The translations under genes and the position numbers were made by a program. This document shows positions 1 through 25,027 of a stretch of DNA of 40,137 nucleotides, one piece after another (position 1 is the first letter of the stretch; every line of letters begins with the position of its first letter). The stretch is from Escherichia phage vB_Eco_Bam, in the sequence record OW991346. One strand, written 5' to 3'. Below the pieces are notes generated by a model, which was not told the origin of the DNA, made no database searches, and saw nothing but the letters and a program-made list of their open reading frames with translations.

Positions 1-2685
1 ATGATTAACTTTGATAACATTCAGCGTAATGACTTCTCTGATGTGAAGAACGCCATTATGCCATTCAACGTACTGGCTGATGCTTACGGTGAATATCTGG
101 CTGGTGAACAACTGCGTTTAGAGCATGAGTCCTACCAGATGGGCGAGGAACGTTTCATCAAGGCGTTCGAGTCTGCCTGTAAGCGTGGTGAACTCGGTGA
201 TTCTCTGGTGGCTCGCCCGTTACTGGAAACCTTGGTTCCTGCACTGAGTGAAGCAACTAAAGCATTCTTAGCTCAAGGTGGTCGTGGTCGTCCGCATGTG
301 TCTAAGCAATACCTGAGCCGTATTGACACCGACCTTGCTGCCTTTATCACCATCAAAGTTGTGCTGATGTCCTTGGGTTCTCCTGCGACAGGCAAAGTAA
401 ACAATCACGGTGCTGTTACTGGTGCTAACATGCAGTCAGTCTGTATGTCTATCTCCAAGGCTATCGAGGAGGAGTGCCGCTTCGGTCGCATTCGTGAAGA
501 AGAAGCACAGCATTTCAAGAATCGCGTTAAACCATCGCTGGATAAGCGCCAAGGTCTGCTGTACAAGCGTGAGTACATGAAGGCTGTTGAAGCTGGCATG
601 ATTGCTAAAGGCGAGTTGGATAGTCACTTTGAGGAGTGGCCGCGCGATGAAGCATACCATGTTGGTGTCAAGATGTTGGAGCTGCTGATTGAATCAACTG
701 GTCTGTGCGAGATTGTACGCAAGAACGCTGGTAATCCTAAGTTAGACCGCTACGAAGTGGAACTGACCGAAGAATACGCTGACAAGCTGACCTCTCGTGT
801 GTCTGCCTTGGCTGGTATCTCACCTGTTAAGCAACCTTGTGTAGTACCACCTAAGCCTTGGACTGGTATCATCGGCGGTGGCTATTGGGCAAAAGGTCGC
901 AAGCCTTTGCGTCTGATTCGTACCGGAACTAAACGCGCTCTGATGCGCTACAACGATGTGGATATGCCAGATGTGTACAAAGCTATCAACATCATTCAGA
1001 ACACCGCTTGGAAGGTCAATGCGGACGTGCTGAAGGTAGCTAACGAGATTGTCTACTGGAAGCATTGCCCTGTTGAAGACATCCCACAACTGGACAAGCT
1101 GGATAAACCTGTACGTCCTGAAGGTATTGATGAAGATGAAGCCCTGCTGAAGAAGTGGAAGAAGAACGCTGCGACCATCTACCGCAAGGAGAAAGCCCGT
1201 CAGTCTCGCCGCTTGTCTCTTGACTTCATGATGGCACAAGCTAACAAGTTCGCTCAGTACGATGCCATTTGGTTCCCGTACACAATGGACTGGCGCGGTC
1301 GTGTATATGCTGAGCCAATGTTTAACCCACAAGGTAACGACCTGACCAAAGGTCTGTTAACTTTCGCTAACGGCTGTGAGCTGGGTTCTGAAGGTGCTTA
1401 CTGGCTGGCGGTGCATGGCTCCAACTGTGCGGGTGTCGATAAAGTATCACTGGACGACCGCGTTAAGTGGGTGTACGAGAACGAAGAAAACATCTTGGCA
1501 TCCGCTGAGAACCCATTAGACTGCACTTGGTGGGCGGAACAAGACTCCCCATTCTGCTTCTTAGCATTCTGCTTCGAGTGGGCAGGGTACGTTAAGTCTG
1601 GCCGTAGTGAAGGCTATGTGTCTCACCTGCCACTGGCATTCGATGGTACTTGCTCCGGTCTGCAACACTTCTCTGCAATGCTGCGTGATGAAGTTGGTGG
1701 TGCTGCTGTTAACCTGCTGCCTGCTGACAAACCACAAGACATCTACGGTATTGTTGCCCAGAAAGTAAACGTCCTGTTGGAGCGTGACCTGTTGAACGGC
1801 ACCGAGGACAGCACCAAGATTGTTGTCGATAAGAAGACAGGTGAACAGATTGAGAAGTTTGTTCTGGGTACACGTAACGCTGCTAAACAATGGCTGCAAC
1901 ACGGTGTAAACCGTAGCGTAACCAAGCGTTCTGTGATGACTCTGGCATACGGTTCCAAGAAGTACGGCTTTGCCGAGCAAATCATGGAGGATACTTTACG
2001 TCCTGCCATTGATAAAGGCGAAGGTAATCAGTTCACTGCACCTAACCAAGCTGCAATGTATCTGGCTGGTCTTATCTGGGACTGTGTATCAACTACCGTA
2101 ATCGCTGCGGTACAAGCTATGGAATGGTTGCAGAAGTCCGCTGCTCTGATTAGTTCAGAAGTGCGAGACAAGAAGACCAAGGAGCTGTTAAAGCCTGCTC
2201 TGCCTATTCACTGGACTACTCCTAACGGGTTCCCTGTTTGGTCAGAGTACATGATTCAGGAGGAGAAGCGCATTGAAGCGACTCTGTTTGGTGAACTGCG
2301 TATCCGCAACACTATCAAGCTGCGTGATACCGCCAAGATTGACGCTCAAGCTCAGGCTTCTGGTATTGCACCTAACTTCATCCATAGCAACGATGCGTCT
2401 CACCTGCAAATGACCGCTGTGTACTGCCACGATGTGTACGGGATTGTTGACTTTGCATTCATCCACGACTCATTCGGTTGTCACGCTGGTAAAGCTCACC
2501 TGCTGTTCAAAGGTGTGCGTGAGACAATGGTTAAGACTTACAGTGAACACGATGTAATCGCTGAGTTCTATGAGCAATTCGCTGAGCAACTGCACGAGTC
2601 CCAACTGGACAAGATGCCAGCTCTTCCTGAGAAGGGTAACTTAGACCTGAACGAAATCCTGAAGTCACTGTACACTTTCAGTTAA
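1..2685 (+). CDS. gp1: DNA-directed RNA polymerase, single-subunit T7-type (gene 1)
   Basis: 894-aa ORF; N-terminus MINFDNIQRNDFSD and blocks such as WFPYTMDWRGRVYA, DGTCSGLQHFSAMLRDEVGG, FIHDSFG and the C-terminal LPEKGNLDLNEILKS match T7 RNAP (883 aa) along the whole length from memory. Window starts at its ATG. Confidence 0.97.
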   Translation: MINFDNIQRNDFSDVKNAIMPFNVLADAYGEYLAGEQLRLEHESYQMGEERFIKAFESACKRGELGDSLVARPLLETLVPALSEATKAFLAQGGRGRPHVSKQYLSRIDTDLAAFITIKVVLMSLGSPATGKVNNHGAVTGANMQSVCMSISKAIEEECRFGRIREEEAQHFKNRVKPSLDKRQGLLYKREYMKAVEAGMIAKGELDSHFEEWPRDEAYHVGVKMLELLIESTGLCEIVRKNAGNPKLDRYEVELTEEYADKLTSRVSALAGISPVKQPCVVPPKPWTGIIGGGYWAKGRKPLRLIRTGTKRALMRYNDVDMPDVYKAINIIQNTAWKVNADVLKVANEIVYWKHCPVEDIPQLDKLDKPVRPEGIDEDEALLKKWKKNAATIYRKEKARQSRRLSLDFMMAQANKFAQYDAIWFPYTMDWRGRVYAEPMFNPQGNDLTKGLLTFANGCELGSEGAYWLAVHGSNCAGVDKVSLDDRVKWVYENEENILASAENPLDCTWWAEQDSPFCFLAFCFEWAGYVKSGRSEGYVSHLPLAFDGTCSGLQHFSAMLRDEVGGAAVNLLPADKPQDIYGIVAQKVNVLLERDLLNGTEDSTKIVVDKKTGEQIEKFVLGTRNAAKQWLQHGVNRSVTKRSVMTLAYGSKKYGFAEQIMEDTLRPAIDKGEGNQFTAPNQAAMYLAGLIWDCVSTTVIAAVQAMEWLQKSAALISSEVRDKKTKELLKPALPIHWTTPNGFPVWSEYMIQEEKRIEATLFGELRIRNTIKLRDTAKIDAQAQASGIAPNFIHSNDASHLQMTAVYCHDVYGIVDFAFIHDSFGCHAGKAHLLFKGVRETMVKTYSEHDVIAEFYEQFAEQLHESQLDKMPALPEKGNLDLNEILKSLYTFS

Positions 2686-2704
2686 TAACACCCACTATGG
2701 GACA
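2683..2704 (+). promoter_or_regulatory. phage RNAP promoter, variant (TAATAACACCCACTATGGGACA)
   Basis: Matches the consensus core CACCCACTAT; initiating region GGGA instead of TGGAGA. Directly after the gene 1 stop. Confidence 0.5.
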
Positions 2705-2722
2705 GACAATCCGGTTTGTCCC
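2699..2722 (+). other. 5' leader hairpin at the transcription start
   Basis: GGGACAGAC-AATCCG-GTTTGTCCC, 9-bp stem beginning at the predicted +1, analogous to the stem-loop at the 5' end of T7 late transcripts. Confidence 0.5.
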
Positions 2723-2749
2723 TAATTACTTAACATTTAGGAGGATAAA

Positions 2750-3247
2750 ATGGTTGACTTTTCTGCTGTTGCTGCTGTTGGTTGTGGTGTTCTGAGCATT
2801 GTGTCTTGCGTCCTGATGTCTAAGCGAAGCATGGACAAGGAAGACATGAAGGTACTGCGCGGCCAAGTCCATGAGTTGAACCAAAAGCTGAAGGCTGAAA
2901 AAGAGTACAACGAGTACATGAAGAAAGACTACAAGTCACGCGAGATTGACTGGATGGGCAAGGTCATTGATGAACAACGGGTAGCCAAGGTGCTGCGTGA
3001 CGAGTTAGGTAAAGCACGTAAGCAACTGAACGAGAAGTTACAACCTGCTACTGTGCAGTGTGACGGGGTGTCTATCCGCTTGGACTCCAAGACTTCAATG
3101 AACTTCTCGGTAGGAAAAGTGATTAAAGAACTGTCACTCTCTGTGCTCGGTAACACTGTGACGGTCACTGTAGTTAAACACAATGGAATTGTTAAATCAC
3201 ATACATTCCAGAACGTGAGCTATAGTTACCGACAAGCGCAGCAATAA
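2750..3247 (+). CDS. hypothetical membrane-anchored coiled-coil protein
   Basis: 165-aa ORF with RBS AGGAGG 7 nt upstream of ATG; N-terminal hydrophobic helix (FSAVAAVGCGVLSIVSCVLM), then a charged heptad-like region, then a beta-rich C-terminus. No recognisable T7 counterpart. Confidence 0.6.
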   Translation: MVDFSAVAAVGCGVLSIVSCVLMSKRSMDKEDMKVLRGQVHELNQKLKAEKEYNEYMKKDYKSREIDWMGKVIDEQRVAKVLRDELGKARKQLNEKLQPATVQCDGVSIRLDSKTSMNFSVGKVIKELSLSVLGNTVTVTVVKHNGIVKSHTFQNVSYSYRQAQQ

Positions 3248-3254
3248 CAATAAC

Positions 3255-3293
3255 TTAGGGTAGTCTGTAATGGGCTACCCTTTTGTCGTTTGT
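3255..3293 (+). terminator. rho-independent terminator (early terminator, TE-like)
   Basis: 9-bp stem AGGGTAGTC / GGCTACCCT with 7-nt loop, followed by TTTTGTCGTTTG. Confidence 0.6.
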
Positions 3294-3303
3294 TAATGCC
3301 ACT

Positions 3304-3325
3304 AATTAACACCCACTATTGGAAT
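3304..3325 (+). promoter_or_regulatory. phage RNAP promoter (AATTAACACCCACTATTGGAAT)
   Basis: Near-perfect match to the ~18-copy consensus AATTAACACCCACTATTGGAGA; first of a tandem pair. Confidence 0.7.
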
Positions 3326-3458
3326 ATAATGACAATAACACTAAGTCTATAAACATTAAGTCTATAACTTATTGTCTATACATTTTGTCTTATTGTTATA
3401 TTAATTATTTAACACCCACTATTGGAAACATTAAGTCTAAACACTAAGAGGAAACATT
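3326..3458 (+). other. candidate primary origin of replication (tandem promoters with AT-rich repeated element)
   Basis: AT-rich tract between and after two tandem phage promoters containing repeated TAAGTCTATAA / TTGTCTATACA motifs. T7's primary origin has the same architecture after gene 1. Confidence 0.4.
3407..3428 (+). promoter_or_regulatory. phage RNAP promoter (ATTTAACACCCACTATTGGAAA)
   Basis: Consensus match; 103 bp after the previous promoter; precedes the methyltransferase gene. Confidence 0.7.
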
Positions 3459-4184
3459 ATGTTAGGTGGAGCACCATTTCAGATTGTACAACCTAAAGAG
3501 CCAGTGAAGTTCGGTGGATTAGGTCACGCTAATGTAGGCATAAAGTCATTACCTAAAGACCGTGGTGTATCATGGTCTGACTTCTATAAGGGTCGCTTAG
3601 GTCAGTCCTATGTTAGTCATGTGTACAAGAACTATAAGGTACATATTGAAGCTATTCGCAGATACATCATTCAGCTATCGCTCAGTAAGAACAGCTCAAT
3701 CAAACCACTACGTGTAGTCGAAGCTGGTTGTGGTATCGGGTCTATCACACTGAACCTTGCTGATATGTCAGACCATAAGACAGTTATCTGCTCAGGCTTT
3801 GATGTGTCAGAAGGACAAGTTGTTAACTCTCGTGAGAACGCATTGCTTAACAATGTGGGTGACAGAGTGTCCTTTCATAAAGGTGACATCTTTAATAGTG
3901 ACGTATATAAAGATGCCCACATCATTCACTCTCATGGTGTCTTAGAACACTTCAGTGACGATGACATTATGAAAATCCTATTGACACAACTCAGTTCTCC
4001 TAACGTTCGGTATGTCATTCACTATGTACCACTGGAAGGATGGAAGACTCCCTCTTATGGTGATGAACGCCTGTTACCGCTGACACATTGGGTCAATGAG
4101 TTCGCTCCTACCCGTACCGTTGCGTTCAACGATGGTAAAGACGCTGTGCTAATCTGGGACGTTGAGTCTTTACTTCGCAATTAA
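3459..4184 (+). CDS. class I SAM-dependent methyltransferase (substrate unknown)
   Basis: 241 aa; motif I VVEAGCGIGSIT, acidic post-I residue in ICSGFDVSE, motif II VSFHKGDIFN, motif III HSHGVLEHF. No DPPY/NPPY amino-methyltransferase motif seen. Downstream of a phage promoter. Confidence 0.8.
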   Translation: MLGGAPFQIVQPKEPVKFGGLGHANVGIKSLPKDRGVSWSDFYKGRLGQSYVSHVYKNYKVHIEAIRRYIIQLSLSKNSSIKPLRVVEAGCGIGSITLNLADMSDHKTVICSGFDVSEGQVVNSRENALLNNVGDRVSFHKGDIFNSDVYKDAHIIHSHGVLEHFSDDDIMKILLTQLSSPNVRYVIHYVPLEGWKTPSYGDERLLPLTHWVNEFAPTRTVAFNDGKDAVLIWDVESLLRN

Positions 4185-4200
4185 CACCCACTATTGGAGA
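4179..4200 (+). promoter_or_regulatory. phage RNAP promoter (AATTAACACCCACTATTGGAGA)
   Basis: Exact consensus; overlaps the methyltransferase stop; precedes ligase. Confidence 0.8.
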
Positions 4201-4282
4201 ACATCGTGTATGAACACTGCTGATATTCTCGCTATCAACTCTATGTTTCAATCCTTATACAAATCCATTGGAGGTAATTCAA

Positions 4283-5254
4283 ATGTTTACAATCAATCCG
4301 GCAAAGCCAGTAGCGTACAAAGAGTCAGCGATTCAGAAAGCTCTGGACAAGTCCGGTTCCCTAATCGCAGACCGCAAGTACGATGGAGTCCGTTGCCACA
4401 TCGTGATTAAACCCACGGCTGACATCAATGGTCGTCCTGCTGCCCGTGCGTACTTCCTGAGTCGTACTAACAAGATGATTGCTGCCTTGCGTAGTGCTTG
4501 GTTGAGCAACGAGGAGCAGCTAGCCTTGGGTCAATTCCTGCAAGAGTCACGCTGGCCTGAAGGCATTGTGCTGGACGGGGAGGCGATGGTTAAAGGTATG
4601 GACTTCAATGCTTCTTCAGGTCGCCTGCGGTCAGACGCTCAGTTACCACTAAGTCAATTGACCTATGTGCTGTACGGTGTGTTGCCTGCTTCTGAGTTGG
4701 AAGCATCCGAGACTGCTGACTTGAGTCTGTCCAATGTGATGATTCAGGTTATCTCTCAAGTCACCATCCATCAGCTAAAGGAACTGCTGAAACCTATTGA
4801 CTGGCAACTGGCTGAGTCATGGGACGTGTACGACATGGAGCAAATCAATGAGCTGTTTGAAGAACAGTTATCATTAGGCCGTGAAGGTCTGGTACTTAAA
4901 GACCCTATGGCACCGTGGAAGCGCGGAAAGAAAACCGGATGGTGGAAGGTGAAGAACGAAGACACCATTGACGGTAATGTAGTTGGCGTAGTGTGGGGAA
5001 CTGAAGGCAAGGCCAATGAAGGCAAAGTGATTGGCTTCGAGGTCTTACTAGAGAATGGCGTTGTGGTGAATGCCTGTGGTCTGACTCAAGACCAGATGGT
5101 TCGATTCACTAGCAACATCAAGTTGAACCCTGATTACTACAAAGATTGGGCTGTTCAGGTTAAGTTCATGGAGCGTACACCTGATGGTTCACTGCGTCAC
5201 CCTAGCTTTGACTGCTGGCGTGGCATGGCTGGGCATGAAACGGAGAAAATGTAA
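4283..5254 (+). CDS. gp1.3: ATP-dependent DNA ligase (T7 gene 1.3-like)
   Basis: Ligase motif I KYDGVRC (adenylation lysine). ATG at 4283 follows RBS GGAGGT; the track ORF begins at an upstream TTG at 4268. Confidence 0.9.
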   Translation: MFTINPAKPVAYKESAIQKALDKSGSLIADRKYDGVRCHIVIKPTADINGRPAARAYFLSRTNKMIAALRSAWLSNEEQLALGQFLQESRWPEGIVLDGEAMVKGMDFNASSGRLRSDAQLPLSQLTYVLYGVLPASELEASETADLSLSNVMIQVISQVTIHQLKELLKPIDWQLAESWDVYDMEQINELFEEQLSLGREGLVLKDPMAPWKRGKKTGWWKVKNEDTIDGNVVGVVWGTEGKANEGKVIGFEVLLENGVVVNACGLTQDQMVRFTSNIKLNPDYYKDWAVQVKFMERTPDGSLRHPSFDCWRGMAGHETEKM

Positions 5255-5322
5255 TGACTGTAGCCGTTATGTTCTTGGTTGTCGTAGGTCTGAGTATTGC
5301 AGCCTATGTGTCATCTCATTAA
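5254..5322 (+). CDS. possible 22-aa hydrophobic peptide
   Basis: ATG overlaps the ligase stop (TAATG); GGAG 8 nt upstream; product MTVAVMFLVVVGLSIAAYVSSH is a single hydrophobic helix. Very short; speculative. Confidence 0.2.
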   Translation: MTVAVMFLVVVGLSIAAYVSSH

Positions 5323-5342
5323 TTATCACCCACTATTGGAGA
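5321..5342 (+). promoter_or_regulatory. phage RNAP promoter (AATTATCACCCACTATTGGAGA)
   Basis: One mismatch to consensus. Confidence 0.65.
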
Positions 5343-5347
5343 ACATC

Positions 5348-5467
5348 ATGTTTATTTCCTATTGTTCACTGCTTGGTGCATCCTGTGGGTCTGCTCACGA
5401 GACGAACACCGTTGCAAATACTGTGGCGCTCCTTACTCTGAGTGCTTCTGTAAACATTCCTAATTAA
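5348..5467 (+). CDS. possible 39-aa protein
   Basis: ATG immediately after the promoter at 5321-5342; product MFISYCSLLGASCGSAHETNTVANTVALLTLSASVNIPN. No clear RBS. Confidence 0.2.
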   Translation: MFISYCSLLGASCGSAHETNTVANTVALLTLSASVNIPN

Positions 5468-5483
5468 CCACCACTATTGGAGA
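5462..5483 (+). promoter_or_regulatory. phage RNAP promoter, variant (AATTAACCACCACTATTGGAGA)
   Basis: Two mismatches in the upstream half; precedes the dNMP kinase. Confidence 0.6.
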
Positions 5484-5491
5484 ACATCATT

Positions 5492-6232
5492 ATGATTCAT
5501 GTACATCTGCCAACAATCATTGGTATCTGCGCTCATGCACCACGTTCAGGTAAAGACACTCTGGCTGACTACATCGAGCGAGAAGCTGAGACCAAGGGTC
5601 TGCGCTATTTCCGTATTGCCTTCGGTGACTTGCTGCGTGAGGTAGTATCAACACTGTTCGGTATGAACTCTCGTGACTACGTTATGGCTGCTCTGCTGGG
5701 TTCCATGAAAGACGTAGCTCATGGTCGGTACAGTATCCGTAACCTAGAGAACGAATCCCTTAAAGAGTTCCTGATTGGAACCTTGGGATTAGACCCAGAC
5801 GAACCACGTTCCCCACGTTTCTATATGCAGCGTGTAGGCAACGACTACGTTAAGGGTCACTTAGGTCTTGAGAGCATGTGGGTTGACGCTGTGGGTACAC
5901 AGATTACCACTCGCCTGTTGTACGGTAACGCTCCTGACTTGGTGATTATCACAGATGTCCGCTCACCTAATGAGTTCGACTATGTGACTGAATGTGGGTT
6001 CTCGGTTGAAGTTAAGACTCAGGGCTTCCCTGCCTTGACTCACTCTGCTAAACCTGACACCTCTCACCCTGTAGAGAATCACCGCTTTGACTGTGACTTT
6101 GTGTTCACCAATGTGTATGGTGACATGCAGTCCCTTCAGTATCAGCTCCGTGAGTCTGGTCTGATTGATGCAGTCATTGAGCGTAACGAGATATTGAAGC
6201 AACGTGTATTTGAACAGGAGGATTACCAGTGA
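5492..6232 (+). CDS. deoxynucleoside monophosphate kinase, T4 gp1-like P-loop type
   Basis: P-loop context GICAHAPRSGKDTLADYI resembles the T4 dNMP kinase N-terminus (SGVKRSGKDTTADFI) from memory. Unlike T7 gp1.7, which lacks this P-loop. Track ORF begins at TTG 5477; ATG at 5492 chosen. Confidence 0.7.
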   Translation: MIHVHLPTIIGICAHAPRSGKDTLADYIEREAETKGLRYFRIAFGDLLREVVSTLFGMNSRDYVMAALLGSMKDVAHGRYSIRNLENESLKEFLIGTLGLDPDEPRSPRFYMQRVGNDYVKGHLGLESMWVDAVGTQITTRLLYGNAPDLVIITDVRSPNEFDYVTECGFSVEVKTQGFPALTHSAKPDTSHPVENHRFDCDFVFTNVYGDMQSLQYQLRESGLIDAVIERNEILKQRVFEQEDYQ

Positions 6233-6396
6233 AGCGATTCGTTATCCATCTTGAACGTGAAGGTTCCAATGAGGAAGAACGCACTGTTATCTTGGCGCGT
6301 GACCTAGACCATGCACTAGACAAAGCTCACTCTTTGTACGGTGAGGACGTGGTAACTCGTGTCCGTCCTGAATTAACACCCACTATTGGAAACTAA
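6229..6396 (+). CDS. gp2: host RNA polymerase inhibitor (T7 gp2-like)
   Basis: 55-aa ORF missing from the ORF track (below its length cut-off). GTG start 6 nt after RBS AGGAGGA; C-terminal ...GEDVVTRVRPELTP matches the T7 gp2 ...FEVTRVRPCVAPK region. Confidence 0.75.
   Translation: MKRFVIHLEREGSNEEERTVILARDLDHALDKAHSLYGEDVVTRVRPELTPTIGN
6371..6392 (+). promoter_or_regulatory. phage RNAP promoter (AATTAACACCCACTATTGGAAA)
   Basis: Consensus match inside the 3' end of the gp2-like gene. Confidence 0.7.
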
Positions 6397-6401
6397 ACTC
6401 T

Positions 6402-6451
6402 AAGATAAAACTCAAGGTCATTCGCACAGAGTGGCCTTTATGATTTATCTT
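6402..6451 (+). promoter_or_regulatory. RNase III-type processing site (two-stem hairpin)
   Basis: Upper stem AAGGTCATTC / GAGTGGCCTT (10 bp with G-U pairs), lower stem AAGATAAA / TTTATCTT, internal loop ACTC / TATGA; member of a six-copy family. Confidence 0.55.
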
Positions 6452-6480
6452 TGTTCAATAAACAACCAATGAGGTAAACA

Positions 6481-6666
6481 ATGCGTAACCCTGAAGTAGT
6501 AAAGATTAAATCAAACAAGGCTCGCCGTTCAGACGAGGAGATGGAACTCATTAATGAGCGTAAGTTCAAAGGTGAGGTACGCCGCAAGGTTCGTGCTGCT
6601 AAGCGTGAACGTACTCGTTTGTGGGCTGAAGGTGAATACGAAGGAGGTGACCGCTATGCGCACTGA
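6481..6666 (+). CDS. hypothetical small basic protein
   Basis: 61 aa, highly basic (KARR, RRKVRAAKRERTR); GAGGT upstream of ATG. Confidence 0.4.
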   Translation: MRNPEVVKIKSNKARRSDEEMELINERKFKGEVRRKVRAAKRERTRLWAEGEYEGGDRYAH

Positions 6667-6969
6667 TAAAGGTTATTCAAACTTGCGTTACTTCTCACGC
6701 CGTAAGGACGCTGGGATGATGGGTGTCTTTTATAATCATGTGCTGACACAAAAGCAGCAGAAGAATATTGAGACTATCCTGTTCAAATCTGGTGACGATG
6801 GTTACAATGCCATCAAGTTACCTAACGGTGAGATTCTATTTCATCGTGAGTTCCTTGAGGCAACATTCAAGAAGGCTGTGTCTGTGTACGCAAGCACTGT
6901 CGATATGTCCATTTCATCCAGTCTAGCATTCAAGGCATTAGGCGAAGTTCTTGAACTACGAGGTGCATA

Positions 6970-6970
<1 letters not shown>
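6656..6970 (+). CDS. hypothetical protein
   Basis: 104 aa from ATG 6656 with RBS GGAGGT 7 nt upstream; the track ORF starts earlier (6554) at a non-ATG codon. Confidence 0.5.
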
Positions 6971-8867
<1,897 letters not shown>

Positions 8868-18840: not shown

Positions 18841-18860
18841 TTAACACCCACTATTGGAGA
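18839..18860 (+). promoter_or_regulatory. phage RNAP promoter (AATTAACACCCACTATTGGAGA), copy 1 of a duplicated pair
   Basis: Exact consensus, overlapping the portal stop codon. Confidence 0.8.
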
Positions 18861-21929: not shown

Positions 21930-24320
21930 ATGGGACTTGTCTCACAATCAATCAAGAACCTGAAGGGTGGTATCAGTCAACAACCTGACATCCTTCGGTT
22001 TGCAGACCAAGGGGAGAAGCAAGTCAATGCGTTCTCCTCAGAGGTTGAGGGTCTACAGAAACGACCTCCAAGCACTCACGTCAACCGATTGGCAGACCAC
22101 GGTGCTCTCAGTGAGAAACCTTATTGTCACGTAATCAACCGTGATGAACAAGAGAAGTACGTTCTGTTCTTCGGGAACAACACTGTGTACGCATACAATC
22201 TATTGACAGGTTTGTATGTTCCAGTGAACTTCCCTAGTGGTGCTTCTTACATTGCCACTGCGAACCCGCGTAAAGACTTACGAATGGTTACCGTAGCGGA
22301 CTTCACCTTTATCATCAACCGTAATGTGGTAGTACAGGAAGGTTCCACTCGGACACCGATGCACTACCAACAAGGTAAACATGGTCTTGTATATTGCCGT
22401 GGTGGCCAATATGCTCGTACCTATCAGATTATTCTGAATGGTGCAGTGCAGGCTACCTATACGGCTCCACTAGGTGACCAAGTAGCCCATGCCAAAGAGA
22501 TTGACACTCAGTTTATCTTGACTAAGCTGGCAGAGAACTTCAACGCTAACCTAAGCCAACACGGATGGTCAGCGTCAGTTCAGGATGGTTACCTGTGGAT
22601 TCAAGCAGGTGGAAACACTATCACTTCCCTGAAGGTAGTGGACGGCTTCAACGGGCAACTGTTGGATTGTATAACTTATTCAGCACAGAAGACCGTAGAC
22701 CTTCCGGTTACAGCTCCCGATAAATACCAAGTGTTAATCTCAGGAGATGCAGCTCAAGGTCAGGATGACTTCTGGGTTCAGTATGATGGTCAACGCCGTG
22801 TATGGACTGAAATCCCTGCACCTAACATCATTGCTGACCTGAACAAGAATACCATGCCTTGGGTGATGATTCGTGAGGCAGACGGTAACTTTACCCTACG
22901 TCCTACCGATTGGTCTACCCGTGGTAGTGGTGACGATGACACTAACCCGATGCCTTCCTTTGTGGGTCAGACAATCAACGATGTGTTCTTCTTCCGTAAC
23001 CGTTTAGGTTTTCTGAGCGGTGAGAACGTTGTGATGTCTGAGGCAGGGTCATACTTCAACTTCTTCCCTCGGTCTGTTGCTGTGACTTCTGATAGTGACC
23101 CTATTGACGTTGCTGTATCAACTAACCGGATTAGTATCTTGAAGTACGCTGTGCCATTCTCTGAGGAACTGCTATTATGGTCTGACCAAAGCCAGTTCGT
23201 AATGACTGCCGATGGTATTCTGACTCCTACGTCTGTCCGCTTGGATATGACCACTGAGTTCGAGGTGACCGATAGTGCTCGCCCTTACGGTATTGGCCGT
23301 GGTGTTTACTTCATTGCACCTCGCGCTAAGTTCTCCTCAGTGCGGCGTTACTATGCTGTGCAGGACGTTACTCAGGTGAAGAACGCTGAGGACGTTACAG
23401 CTCACGTACCGAGTTACATCCCTAATGGTGTACACAAAGTCACCGGTAGTTCCATTGAGAACTTGCTTACCGTGTTGACCGAGGGTGCTCCACATAAGGT
23501 GTTCCTTTACAAGTTCCTGTACTTGGAAGAACAGATTGCCCAGCAGTCTTGGTCTGAGTGGGACTTTGGGGAAGGTTCTCGTGTACTGTGCTGTGACATG
23601 ATGGGAGCTATTATGCACCTCGTGATTGATGCCCCTTCTGGTATCTACATGGAACGCATTGAGTTCACTCAGAACACTAAGGACTATCCTAACGAACCGT
23701 ACCGTTTGTATATGGACAGAAAGATTCGTTACACCATCCCTAGTGGCGCATACAACGATGACAACTTTGAGACTACTATCTACTTGCAGAACGTGTATGG
23801 TGCTAAGCCTCAGTACGGTAAGTATTTCGTAGTGTTAGAATCTGGTGTCGTGTATGAGTTCGACCCGCCTGATGGTGGTTGGGCTGCGTCAGATGGTGGT
23901 CTTCGCATCAACGGAAACCTTGAAGGTTACAACGTGTTCATCGGTGAGCAGTACACCATGCTGTATCAGTTCTCCAAGTTCCTTATTAAGTCTGTTGATA
24001 CTAATGGTGGTACAACTACTGAGGACATCGGTCGCTTACAATTGCGCCGCGCTTGGGTTAACTACGACAAGTCAGGCGACTTCCGTATCCAAGTTGAGAA
24101 TCAAGGTCGAGTGTTCACGTACAACATGACAGGTCGCCGCTTAGGGACTAAACAACTGGTACTTGGTGAGCAGAACCTAGATACAGGACAATTTAAGTAC
24201 CCTGTGTCAGGTAACGCCAAGGTGGTTAACATTACGTTGCTATCCGATGCCCCAAGCCCTGTTGCTATCATTGGTGGTGGATGGGAAGGTAACTACATCA
24301 GACGTTCATCTGGTATTTAA
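21930..24320 (+). CDS. gp12: tail tubular protein B (T7 gp12-like)
   Basis: 796 aa (T7 gp12 is 794 aa); position after gp11; RBS AAGGAGG. Confidence 0.92.
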   Translation: MGLVSQSIKNLKGGISQQPDILRFADQGEKQVNAFSSEVEGLQKRPPSTHVNRLADHGALSEKPYCHVINRDEQEKYVLFFGNNTVYAYNLLTGLYVPVNFPSGASYIATANPRKDLRMVTVADFTFIINRNVVVQEGSTRTPMHYQQGKHGLVYCRGGQYARTYQIILNGAVQATYTAPLGDQVAHAKEIDTQFILTKLAENFNANLSQHGWSASVQDGYLWIQAGGNTITSLKVVDGFNGQLLDCITYSAQKTVDLPVTAPDKYQVLISGDAAQGQDDFWVQYDGQRRVWTEIPAPNIIADLNKNTMPWVMIREADGNFTLRPTDWSTRGSGDDDTNPMPSFVGQTINDVFFFRNRLGFLSGENVVMSEAGSYFNFFPRSVAVTSDSDPIDVAVSTNRISILKYAVPFSEELLLWSDQSQFVMTADGILTPTSVRLDMTTEFEVTDSARPYGIGRGVYFIAPRAKFSSVRRYYAVQDVTQVKNAEDVTAHVPSYIPNGVHKVTGSSIENLLTVLTEGAPHKVFLYKFLYLEEQIAQQSWSEWDFGEGSRVLCCDMMGAIMHLVIDAPSGIYMERIEFTQNTKDYPNEPYRLYMDRKIRYTIPSGAYNDDNFETTIYLQNVYGAKPQYGKYFVVLESGVVYEFDPPDGGWAASDGGLRINGNLEGYNVFIGEQYTMLYQFSKFLIKSVDTNGGTTTEDIGRLQLRRAWVNYDKSGDFRIQVENQGRVFTYNMTGRRLGTKQLVLGEQNLDTGQFKYPVSGNAKVVNITLLSDAPSPVAIIGGGWEGNYIRRSSGI

Positions 24321-24336
24321 CACCCACTATTGGAGA
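24315..24336 (+). promoter_or_regulatory. phage RNAP promoter (ATTTAACACCCACTATTGGAGA) upstream of the deoxynucleoside kinase
   Basis: Consensus match overlapping the gp12 stop. Confidence 0.75.
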
Positions 24337-24353
24337 CATAACACCCACAACCT

Positions 24354-24379
24354 GAGGGTCACTATATTTAGTGGCTCTC
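24354..24379 (+). other. leader hairpin upstream of the deoxynucleoside kinase RBS
   Basis: GAGGGTCACTA-TATT-TAGTGGCTCTC, 11-bp stem with two G-U pairs, then TTTTAT and the RBS GGAGG. Confidence 0.5.
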
Positions 24380-24397
24380 TTTTATGGAGGAATTTTA

Positions 24398-25027
24398 ATG
24401 AGAATTGTAGTTATTGAAGCTAACATTGGTGCAGGTAAATCCACTTTGTTACAACCTCTTGTGGATGAACTTCAGCTATGGTCTGGTGAAGATTGGGACT
24501 TAGTGATTGAACCAGTAGACCAAGACCCTGAGTTCCACCGTCTGTTGAAAGAAATGATTGCCGATATGTCTAACCCAGACAAGCGTATTCGTTTCCAGAT
24601 GTACCTGACCGAGCAGCGTCAACAACTGTTAAAGAACTTACCTGATGGAAACTATGTCGTTGAACGCTCTCTGTTCAGTGACCTTGTGTTCTCCCAGATG
24701 TATTTCTTAACGACTGAGAAACCTTCTGCCGAGTACATGAATTATTACTACAACATCAAGGAACGTCTGAAAGACTACCCTCAGATTGATTGTGTCGTGT
24801 ACTTAGACCGTGACCCTGCGTCTTGCCATGAGTCCATCATCAAGCGTGGTCGTGAAGGTGAGCACTATGAGATGCACTATCTGGAAGACCTAAAGCGTTT
24901 CCACGATGCGTGTCTACCTCAGATTGCTCGTGAGTATAACACTAAGCTAATCACTGTGGACTTAGGTAAGACCTATGCTCTGCCTTCTGTGATTGCTGCT
25001 GATGTAATGGAGCACTTATATGGCTAA
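24398..25027 (+). CDS. deoxynucleoside kinase (dNK/dCK/dGK family)
   Basis: 209 aa; P-loop IEANIGAGKST, substrate-site EPV, ERS motif (VVERSLFSD) and arginine-rich LID KRGREGEHYE are the defining dNK-family signatures. Own phage promoter and RBS GGAGG. Confidence 0.8.
   Translation: MRIVVIEANIGAGKSTLLQPLVDELQLWSGEDWDLVIEPVDQDPEFHRLLKEMIADMSNPDKRIRFQMYLTEQRQQLLKNLPDGNYVVERSLFSDLVFSQMYFLTTEKPSAEYMNYYYNIKERLKDYPQIDCVVYLDRDPASCHESIIKRGREGEHYEMHYLEDLKRFHDACLPQIAREYNTKLITVDLGKTYALPSVIAADVMEHLYG

Follow-up and report, generated by a model that had tools for sequence, protein, structure and literature searches.

What does a T7-like coliphage methylate with an enzyme that is not of the DNA-modifying kind? 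The question is raised by the gene MAK_003, at positions 3459 to 4184 of the stretch of DNA analysed here (the window), which is the complete 40,137-bp genome of Escherichia phage vB_Eco_Mak (Mak; OX001577.1; Autographiviridae, Studiervirinae), rotated by 206 nt relative to the deposited record. Orphan phage methyltransferases are usually assumed to guard DNA from restriction, and MAK_003 is clearly of another type. It encodes an S-adenosylmethionine (SAM)-dependent methyltransferase of a compact, essentially phage-only and uncharacterised family. We consider it likely that this is an accessory host-takeover or counter-defence enzyme acting on a universally conserved non-DNA substrate. As to the substrate itself, we tentatively put forward ribose O-methylation of RNA ends or tRNA, similar to the activity of bacterial Hen1, as a form of counter-defence.

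MAK_003 is a real gene and not an artefact. Its frame, as read from the window, runs on the + strand from an ATG at 3459 to a TAA ending at 4184 and encodes 241 amino acids; the GenBank label is 'hypothetical protein ... Methyltransferase domain'. The preliminary description of this locus, made from the DNA letters, had called the product a SAM-dependent methyltransferase, and this was confirmed, far beyond chance, by two Pfam models above their cut-off of 27 (Methyltransf_31, E=1.7e-10, 41.2 bits; Methyltransf_25, E=1.8e-8, 35.4 bits) and by 283 homologues in a large protein database, nearly all of them unnamed metagenomic proteins of 165-200 amino acids. The SAM-binding motifs that it had quoted are all present, namely VVEAGCGIGSIT at residues 86-97, D115 within GFDVS, VSFHKGDIFN at residues 137-146, and GVLEHF at residues 160-165. 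The glycine-rich motif I that follows beta-1 (VVEAGCGIG, residues 86-94) has the form required of class I methyltransferases.

An alignment of 72 family members was the basis both of the conservation figures given here and of an AlphaFold2 model. The model is confident (predicted local distance difference test, pLDDT, 87.5; predicted template modelling score, pTM, 0.84) and has the canonical seven-stranded alpha/beta SAM-binding fold expected of class I methyltransferases, from residue 38 on. Foldseek comparison of the model with the PDB returned template modelling scores (TM-scores) of ~0.55 at 12-16% identity, the best matches being MppJ, CurJ, SgvM, METTL6, ChlM, Hen1, and AprA-MT2. MAK_003 is a SAM-dependent methyltransferase of the small-molecule/RNA structural subgroup. 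The metal-dependent and natural-product C-/O-methyltransferases MppJ (4kib), SgvM (8fts/8ftr), CurJ (5thy), AprA-MT2 (6d6y), and MfnG (7ux6) share 11-17% identity with MAK_003 at a query TM-score of ~0.55-0.6, but they are proteins of 330-510 amino acids with extra dimerisation or lid domains that MAK_003 lacks, and they act in biosynthetic gene clusters, of which Mak has none.

The reading of the gene as a methyltransferase of non-DNA type had been based on missing motifs, and a pattern search of the protein found none of them: no [DNS]PP[YFWH], SPP, PC[QS], or ENV, nor any PP dipeptide. Motif IV of the DNA amino-methyltransferases, (D/N/S)-P-P-(Y/F/W), is absent and its place after beta-4 is taken by S-H-G; neither a target-recognition domain nor a likeness to known amino-type DNA methyltransferases was found. 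With regard to cytosine-C5 methylation, there was no PCQ, no ENV, and no Pfam DNA_methylase match at E<=1. Since the profile searches gave no confident placement in a DNA methyltransferase family and the structure prediction gave a Rossmann fold, the non-DNA interpretation stands, and MAK_003 is not a canonical DNA methyltransferase.

Beyond the SAM motifs, four signatures mark the family (W-x-x-F-Y..R..Y..Y, SHGVLEHF, HYVP, and SFGDERLL; Table 1); they are kept in phages whose hosts differ widely and correspond to nothing characterised. Across the 72 sequences 21 positions are invariant (W39, Y43, Y51, Y59, E88, G90, G92, D115, G160, L162, E163, H164, Y189, V190, P191, G201, D202, E203, R204, L205, W211), and R46, C91, N127, H159, V161, F165, I170, H188, S199, P217, F223, N224, and D228 are nearly so. 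These residues appear to occupy the places in which the active site of class I methyltransferases is formed: immediately after beta-4, in and after beta-5, and in an N-terminal lid. The acidic residue at the end of beta-2 is a ribose-hydroxyl ligand in class I methyltransferases, and by analogy D115 would have this role. SHGVLEHF is, to judge from its conservation, likely catalytic or metal-binding, and S-(F/Y)-G-D-E-R-L-L is a putative substrate-binding loop. Taken together, a set of three His, Glu, Asp, Arg, and four aromatic residues would suit the activation of a hydroxyl group, possibly assisted by a metal, as in Hen1 or in MppJ/SgvM.

Searches for a named relative recovered mainly generic similarity. 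No curated family claims MAK_003, and all NCBIfam matches of the query were far under cut-off (BchM, TIGR02021, 42.8 bits vs. 158.9; PrmC, 29.2 vs. 199; CmoM, NF008264, 27.6 vs. 366). When the 72 members were scanned singly, the most consistent matches were to BioC (51 members), BchM (44), Tam (43), CpaM (32), PrmC (31), and UbiG (28). The likeness to the BioC/Tam/BchM(ChlM)/CmoM group of carboxyl and small-molecule O-methyltransferases is limited to the SAM-binding half, and this group has no counterpart to the N- and C-terminal motifs of the MAK_003 family. The sister phage vB_Eco_Titus (OX090892.1) carries an identical protein under the Prokka label 'tRNA 5-carboxymethoxyuridine methyltransferase' (CmoM); given the score above, and a CmoM model that only 9 of the 72 members match, this label is over-specific and unsupported. 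The score likewise led us to reject a Mg-protoporphyrin IX methyltransferase (BchM/ChlM), the best NCBIfam match. Searching the PDB with the family profile also gave similarity confined to the SAM-binding half. The full profile aligned with METTL6 over positions 3-103 (E ~1e-4), through the W-x-x-F-Y region, but the N-terminal sub-profile on its own (A2) recovered no methyltransferase and had no PDB match, and a METTL6 or METTL2/6/8-type tRNA m3C identity was therefore rejected. The only PDB match of the C-terminal-half sub-profile (A3) was a designed repeat protein, which we regard as spurious. PHROGs v4 has no family for the protein, although weak matches were seen to phrog_4752 'tRNA methyltransferase' (28/72 members) and phrog_22502 (20/72). 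Terminal extensions in a few members (P0193, P0238, P0060/P0068/P0124) were considered as a domain-fusion clue, but they are mutually unrelated, have no PDB match, and are uninformative. Our literature search found no description of the family and none of a phage methyltransferase that has immune signals or tRNA as its target or takes part in counter-defence against anticodon nucleases, with the proviso that an earlier mention in Burroughs and Aravind 2016 is possible; the one paper that cites phage Mak does not mention the gene.

The distribution of the family is almost wholly viral. An exhaustive profile search of 1.84 billion representative sequences yielded ~264 clusters (50% identity) at E<=1e-30 and 872 at E<=1e-10, nearly all of single-domain proteins. 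By tblastn, 13 of 50,697 phage records carry a homologue, on at least three unrelated backbones; neither T7 nor T3 is among them, in agreement with the preliminary description, which knew of no T7 counterpart. MAK_003 occupies a variable slot between the phage RNA polymerase gene and an ATP-dependent DNA ligase gene, in which T7 carries genes 1.1 and 1.2. All contexts inspected were phage-like. The T7-like carriers (Mak, Titus, and Aeromonas phage PZL-Ah152) have the gene in this same slot, and further carriers were 52-57-kb Aeromonas phages, 65-kb Escherichia and Pantoea phages, a 159-kb T4-like contig, jumbo contigs of 373-441 kb, and many human-gut phage contigs. Among Aeromonas T7-like records, the tblastn search gave a homologue in PZL-Ah152 only, and the gene is therefore accessory. 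Among 185,579 species genomes of bacteria and archaea (one per species) there were ~8 true members, all on contigs of metagenome-assembled genomes (MAGs). A host or prophage origin was rejected, given that no member occurs in 5,426 complete E. coli genomes and that PLSDB returned one match, a 107-kb Phocaeicola replicon. The spread over T7-like, T4-like, jumbo, and gut phages of distant bacterial phyla implies a universal, non-DNA target.

To characterise the gene neighbourhoods, we called the open reading frames (ORFs) of 105 loci, grouped their methyltransferases into 34 lineages (<60% identity), and clustered all neighbours. The ATP-dependent DNA ligase was the only neighbour family found in many lineages (within 6 kb in 8/34). 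The ligase adjoins the methyltransferase in Mak (84-nt gap), is separated from it by one small ORF in PZL-Ah152, and lies within ~0.5-1.1 kb of it in three other loci (L020, L034, L090). In a fourth locus, a 104-kb phage contig (L011), a LAGLIDADG homing endonuclease gene is located exactly between the two. Genes of RNA repair are found near the methyltransferase at further loci (Table 1), including RtcB, Rnl-type ligases, and RlaP, a nucleotidyltransferase family whose name refers to its association with RNA ligases (PMC12776372; PMC7824862). Over the 34 independent lineages, end-joining and RNA-repair genes were the only neighbours to recur. Thg1 and Ro60/TROVE occur once each. The locus L097 looks like a phage RNA-repair island: its ATP-dependent ligase also matches the RNA_ligase model, and 4-6 kb upstream are the genes of four tRNAs (Val, Ala, Arg, Trp). 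A Pfam census covering the 202 neighbours of at least 125 amino acids showed ligase and RNA-repair families to be the most recurrent, above common phage families such as helicases, and no DNA polymerase was among the families listed. We used distance decay as an internal control, each lineage being represented by one locus. Within 1.5 kb of the methyltransferase, ligase and RNA-repair ORFs had a density of 0.119/kb compared with 0.011/kb at 4.5-6 kb (~10-fold; chi-square p=0.010). In terms of gene order, the link with end-joining enzymes is therefore real; its specifically RNA-repair part is suggestive. An almost phage-only family that is often found beside DNA or RNA ligases is probably one of host-takeover or anti-defence enzymes.

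How could such an enzyme serve the phage? In the mechanism that we tentatively propose, it would O-methylate a ribose hydroxyl at an RNA end or within tRNA, the role that Hen1 has in bacterial Pnkp/Hen1 repair. The His/Glu cluster formed by H159, E163, H164, and H188 would, together with D202/E203, position the 2'/3' hydroxyls by the SAM methyl group, possibly via a divalent metal. RNA methylated in this way would then resist cleavage, or re-cleavage after ligation, by RNA-cutting host defences (e.g., anticodon nucleases). In phages with RtcB, Rnl, or RlaP the methyltransferase would act inside a repair module, while in Mak, with the adjacent ATP-dependent ligase only, it may act alone or with host repair enzymes.

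The likeness of MAK_003 to the methyltransferase domain of bacterial Hen1 (PDB 3jwi) is structural only, with no sequence relation above generic SAM-binding similarity. Hen1 is bacterial whereas the MAK_003 family is phage-encoded, and Mak has neither Pnkp nor an RNA ligase. The Pnkp-binding N-terminal domain of Hen1 is absent from MAK_003, and in place of the operon partner Pnkp Mak has just the adjacent DNA ligase, while loosely comparable repair partners are present in some other lineages (L097, L028, L081, L092, L094). The metal motif of Hen1, E-x-x-E-H after beta-4 plus a downstream His, has its first Glu replaced by Gly (G160) in MAK_003, where H159, H188, and D202/E203 are candidate alternative ligands.

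Several observations weigh against an RNA-directed, Hen1-like role. None of the annotated genes of Mak is one of RNA repair. Most members of the family are acidic (median isoelectric point, pI, 6.1; 10% of members above pI 8), and so acidic a family, with just three conserved basic positions, is not what one would usually expect of an RNA-gripping protein. The query matches 28 NCBIfam families at E<=1, and the 25 of them that were listed do not include bacterial Hen1; Hen1 is likewise missing from the 25 families that the 72 members match most often and from the best 60 PDB profile matches, and its metal motif is half present (G160-x-x-E163-H164). The His/Glu cluster is a prediction from topology and not from structure coordinates. 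Furthermore, the distance signal is carried mainly by DNA ligases: RNA-repair genes alone number 6/2/3/1 over the four distance bins (p=0.25, not significant), and DNA ligases in T7-like genomes adjoin this variable slot anyway, so that co-location in an early or accessory module could explain much of the signal. One phage lineage (L017) and the cellular sister family also sit in sugar or radical-SAM contexts.

A small-molecule substrate is nearly as likely as the Hen1-like role. In this alternative, the substrate would be a universal metabolite or immune signal derived from a nucleotide, and its methylation would disarm a host defence or redirect nucleotide pools. The candidates are derivatives of nicotinamide adenine dinucleotide (NAD+), of nicotinamide mononucleotide or of ADP-ribose, cyclic-nucleotide messengers, and mononucleotides such as m6dAMP or dAMP/dIMP, which are sensed by the Metis and Kongming defences; the ATP-dependent ligase of the phage and its other NAD-independent enzymes would stay working. 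T7-type phages trigger both the m6dAMP signal (Metis) and the dITP signal (Kongming). RNA enzymes of this fold subgroup (CmoM, Hen1) show the structural likeness to small-molecule enzymes as well, so it does not discriminate between the two. NAD genes stand at few loci (NAD synthase in L007; NAMPT and NUDIX in L012), and a preference for an NAD theme was rejected because NAD-related neighbours in 2-3 of the 34 lineages are too few. There is no conserved pathway partner either, and methylation of an immune signal as counter-defence was not described in the literature searched. In L012, on a 39.4-kb contig, the genes directly upstream of the methyltransferase encode NUDIX, NAMPT, and an adenylosuccinate-synthetase-family protein; NUDIX and NAMPT look like a putative NAD+ salvage/reconstitution pair, and the remaining protein could be PurZ-like.

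Both substrate classes allow for a more specific and doubtful possibility, namely that MAK_003 represents a new counter-defence by methyl-capping, in which a stand-alone, Hen1-like methylation protects host or phage RNA ends or tRNA from anticodon or tRNA-tail nucleases, or a nucleotide-derived alarm molecule is methylated so that the effector never fires. For the latter, m6dAMP (Metis), dAMP/dITP (Kongming), and ADP-ribose-derived or cyclic-nucleotide signals would be candidates, with the same degree of doubt. We found no phage-encoded methyltransferase with either activity in the literature searched.

It is unlikely that the enzyme is a sugar O-methyltransferase acting on a glycan or a nucleoside diphosphate (NDP)-sugar, such as host surface polysaccharide, a phage structural glycan, or a glycosylated DNA base. 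In L017 the methyltransferase lies within a glycan-type cluster of abutting genes, and in L086 a GT1 gene is nearby; however, glycan contexts were seen in just ~2/34 phage lineages, and Mak and most other carriers have no nearby glycosyltransferase. The radical-SAM gene of L017 is interrupted by an intein with an HNH endonuclease domain. Five of the best 14 structural matches in BFVD were glycosyltransferase-methyltransferase fusion proteins, and models of a pseudaminic-acid-associated methylase and of the NanM sugar O-methyltransferase were matched by 19/72 and 17/72 members, respectively. A more distant, cellular sister family points in the same direction. It occurs in Candidate Phyla Radiation (CPR) bacteria, DPANN archaea, Clostridia, and Planctomycetota, is fused to a B12/radical-SAM domain in a Planctomycetota MAG (L103), and elsewhere (L105, L107, L099, L102) adjoins BpsA-like, radical-SAM, GT2, and GDP-mannose 4,6-dehydratase genes. 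This sister family keeps SHGVLEHF, SVP at the HYVP position, and GDER-x-L..W, but it lacks HYVP and the N-terminal aromatic motif, so its sugar context may not transfer to the phage proteins. The strict conservation over phages of Proteobacteria, Bacteroidota, Spirochaetes, Cyanobacteria, and others also speaks against a species-specific glycan. O-methylation of a sugar or ribose hydroxyl may be what the RNA-repair and glycan contexts have in common.

Similarly improbable is an enzyme that methylates host or phage proteins during host takeover, with the ligase itself, a ribosomal protein, or a translation factor as conceivable targets. The best single-sequence PDB matches were archaeal protein-lysine methyltransferases (5fa8 at 3.7e-4; 5jwj), and the NCBIfam matches include the PrmC/HemK glutamine methyltransferases (31/72 members) and an archaeal lysine methyltransferase model, but these span the SAM-binding half only and are far under the curated cut-offs. 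The NPPY motif of the PrmC/HemK class is absent, and the neighbourhoods point to no protein target. The N-terminal extension of the Mak clade, which is conserved and predicted to be disordered, could serve as a docking peptide in such an enzyme. It has pLDDT values <50 at residues 1-9, 17-29, and 32-35, is missing from nearly all other members (which start at about residue 36-38), and is conserved in P0001-P0003, relatives that are 85-93% identical. No alternative in-frame start codon is found near residue 37 of MAK_003. We give very little credence to a non-canonical DNA methyltransferase that guards phage DNA from restriction or marks ends or nicks for the adjacent ligase, for which the evidence is the DNA ligase near the methyltransferase in 8 lineages and weak matches to phrog_11787 'DNA methyltransferase' (1.4e-3) and to MADS mad2 (PADLOC, 1.6e-10), the latter restricted to the SAM-binding region and uninformative.

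SAM-directed accessory genes have a precedent among T7-like coliphages in the SAM lyase (SAMase) gp0.3 of T3, which, like MAK_003, is found in some but not all of them, and which one report describes as anti-defence against type I restriction-modification and BREX (10.1101/2023.02.27.530186). The two proteins differ wholly in fold and chemistry, as gp0.3 destroys SAM and MAK_003 uses it. They also differ in location: T3 gp0.3 maps to the left-end class I early region, while MAK_003 is a class II gene past the RNA polymerase gene.

Nothing yet shows that MAK_003 does anything unprecedented. Its family is nevertheless small and sharply conserved across T7-like, T4-like, jumbo, and gut phages of distant bacterial phyla, and, given how often it is found by ligases and RNA-repair genes, MAK_003 is a concrete candidate for an enzyme with a new activity in counter-defence: a protein of 241 amino acids, encoded in an isolated cassette of a tractable coliphage. 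If RNA ends or tRNA were the target, the Hen1 principle of 'repair and immunise' would be extended from bacteria to phages; if it were a nucleotide signal, this would be a new chemical route of immune evasion. A small-molecule enzyme of housekeeping type would be an ordinary finding, yet one that corrects the misleading CmoM label in Titus.

Table 1 Features at and around MAK_003 in the window, and neighbouring genes at selected homologous loci.
Feature	Sequence	Position	Strand	Details
Phage RNA polymerase gene	Window	1-2685		
MAK_002	Window	2750-3247		165-aa ORF
Promoter core 1 of tandem pair, TTAACACCCACTATTGGA	Window	3306..3323	+	Exact consensus match, 5' of methyltransferase gene
Promoter core 2 of tandem pair	Window	3409..3426	+	Exact consensus match; 33 nt before start codon
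Shine-Dalgarno AAGAGGA	Window	3446-3452	+	6 nt 5' of ATG 3459; read directly; strong ribosome-binding site
MAK_003 coding sequence	Window	3459..4184	+	Class I SAM-dependent methyltransferase of phage-restricted orphan family; 241 aa + stop
N-terminal extension, residues 1-37	Window	3459..3569	+	Predicted disordered; Mak-clade specific
N-terminal aromatic motif W39-x3-Y43-x2-R46-x4-Y51-x7-Y59	Window	3573..3635	+	W39, Y43, Y51, Y59 invariant; R46 94% (72 sequences)
Motif I VVEAGCGIGSIT, loop E88-x-G90-C-G92 after beta-1	Window	3714..3749	+	E88, G90, G92 invariant; beta-1 = 84-89 (model)
Motif II GFDVS	Window	3795..3809	+	D115 invariant, end of beta-2 (109-115 in model)
Post-beta-4 motif SHGVLEHF	Window	3930..3953	+	H159, G160, L162, E163, H164 invariant or nearly; beta-4 = 155-159
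HYVP motif in beta-5	Window	4020..4031	+	H188 96%; Y189, V190, P191 invariant
S-(F/Y)-G-D-E-R-L-L loop, beta-5 to next helix	Window	4053..4076	+	G201, D202, E203, R204, L205 invariant
Next promoter core	Window	4181..4198	+	Exact match; overlaps TAA stop 4182-4184; would drive ligase gene
GGAGG	Window	4270-4274		Precedes ATG 4283 of ligase gene
MAK_004, ATP-dependent DNA ligase	Window	4283..5254	+	Pfam DNA_ligase_A_M 4.2e-20, DNA_ligase_C 3.1e-23; GenBank label
MAK_005	Window	5477-6232		251-aa P-loop protein; labelled hypothetical
MAK_033	Window	24272-24901		Putative deoxyribonucleoside kinase (label)
L097	Cyclobacteriaceae MAG contig JANQEC010000023.1	5995-11229		Methyltransferase, RlaP (overlapping stop/start), RtcB, two ORFs, ligase
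L094				RtcB 0.9 kb upstream; seryl-tRNA synthetase 2 kb downstream
L028				HD-plus-kinase protein and T4 Rnl1-type ligase, downstream
L092, L010, L014				Rnl-type ligases
L081, L086				RlaP
L009				Stand-alone Nlig-Ia domain overlapping methyltransferase start; RlaP at locus edge
L011, LAGLIDADG gene	104-kb phage contig	6097-6750		Between methyltransferase and ligase
L012	ENA contig BRZ_AK NODE_1033, 39.4 kb	75-5863		NUDIX, NAMPT, adenylosuccinate-synthetase-family gene, methyltransferase
L017	IMGVR_UViG_3300005264_000043, 43-kb viral contig	2996-7129		Abutting B12-binding radical-SAM, glycosyltransferase, methyltransferase, NDP-sugar transferase
L103 (sister family)	Planctomycetota MAG	4336-6549		Fusion to B12/radical-SAM domain

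The 18-nt core TTAACACCCACTATTGGA has 18 + strand matches with up to 3 mismatches in the window, 10 of them exact, where 0.04 would be expected by chance. By likeness to T7 class II promoters, these cores probably act as promoters. Three of them (3306, 3409, 4181) flank MAK_003, which on this evidence appears to form a self-contained class II cassette. The upstream two make up one of the tandem pairs in the window, another being located at 18841/18968.

Other genes of the genome also drew our attention. MAK_002 shares the variable slot with MAK_003 and lies between it and the RNA polymerase gene. Its N-terminal segment is hydrophobic and is followed by ~70 charged-rich residues that may form a coiled coil; according to its GenBank record it has no BLAST similarity to anything. 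The product of MAK_005, just past the ligase gene, has a P-loop (GICAHAPRSGKDT) and no sequence relative in the PDB. The Pfam neighbour census contained two matches to PF21448, a deoxynucleoside monophosphate (dNMP)-kinase family, and MAK_005 is probably one of them. The Kongming defence is triggered by phage dNMP kinases, and MAK_005, as a candidate dNMP kinase, could be relevant to the question of what MAK_003 methylates. The gene labelled as a putative deoxyribonucleoside kinase, MAK_033, lies between those of tail tubular protein B and the internal virion proteins, an odd position for a gene of nucleotide metabolism in a T7-like genome.

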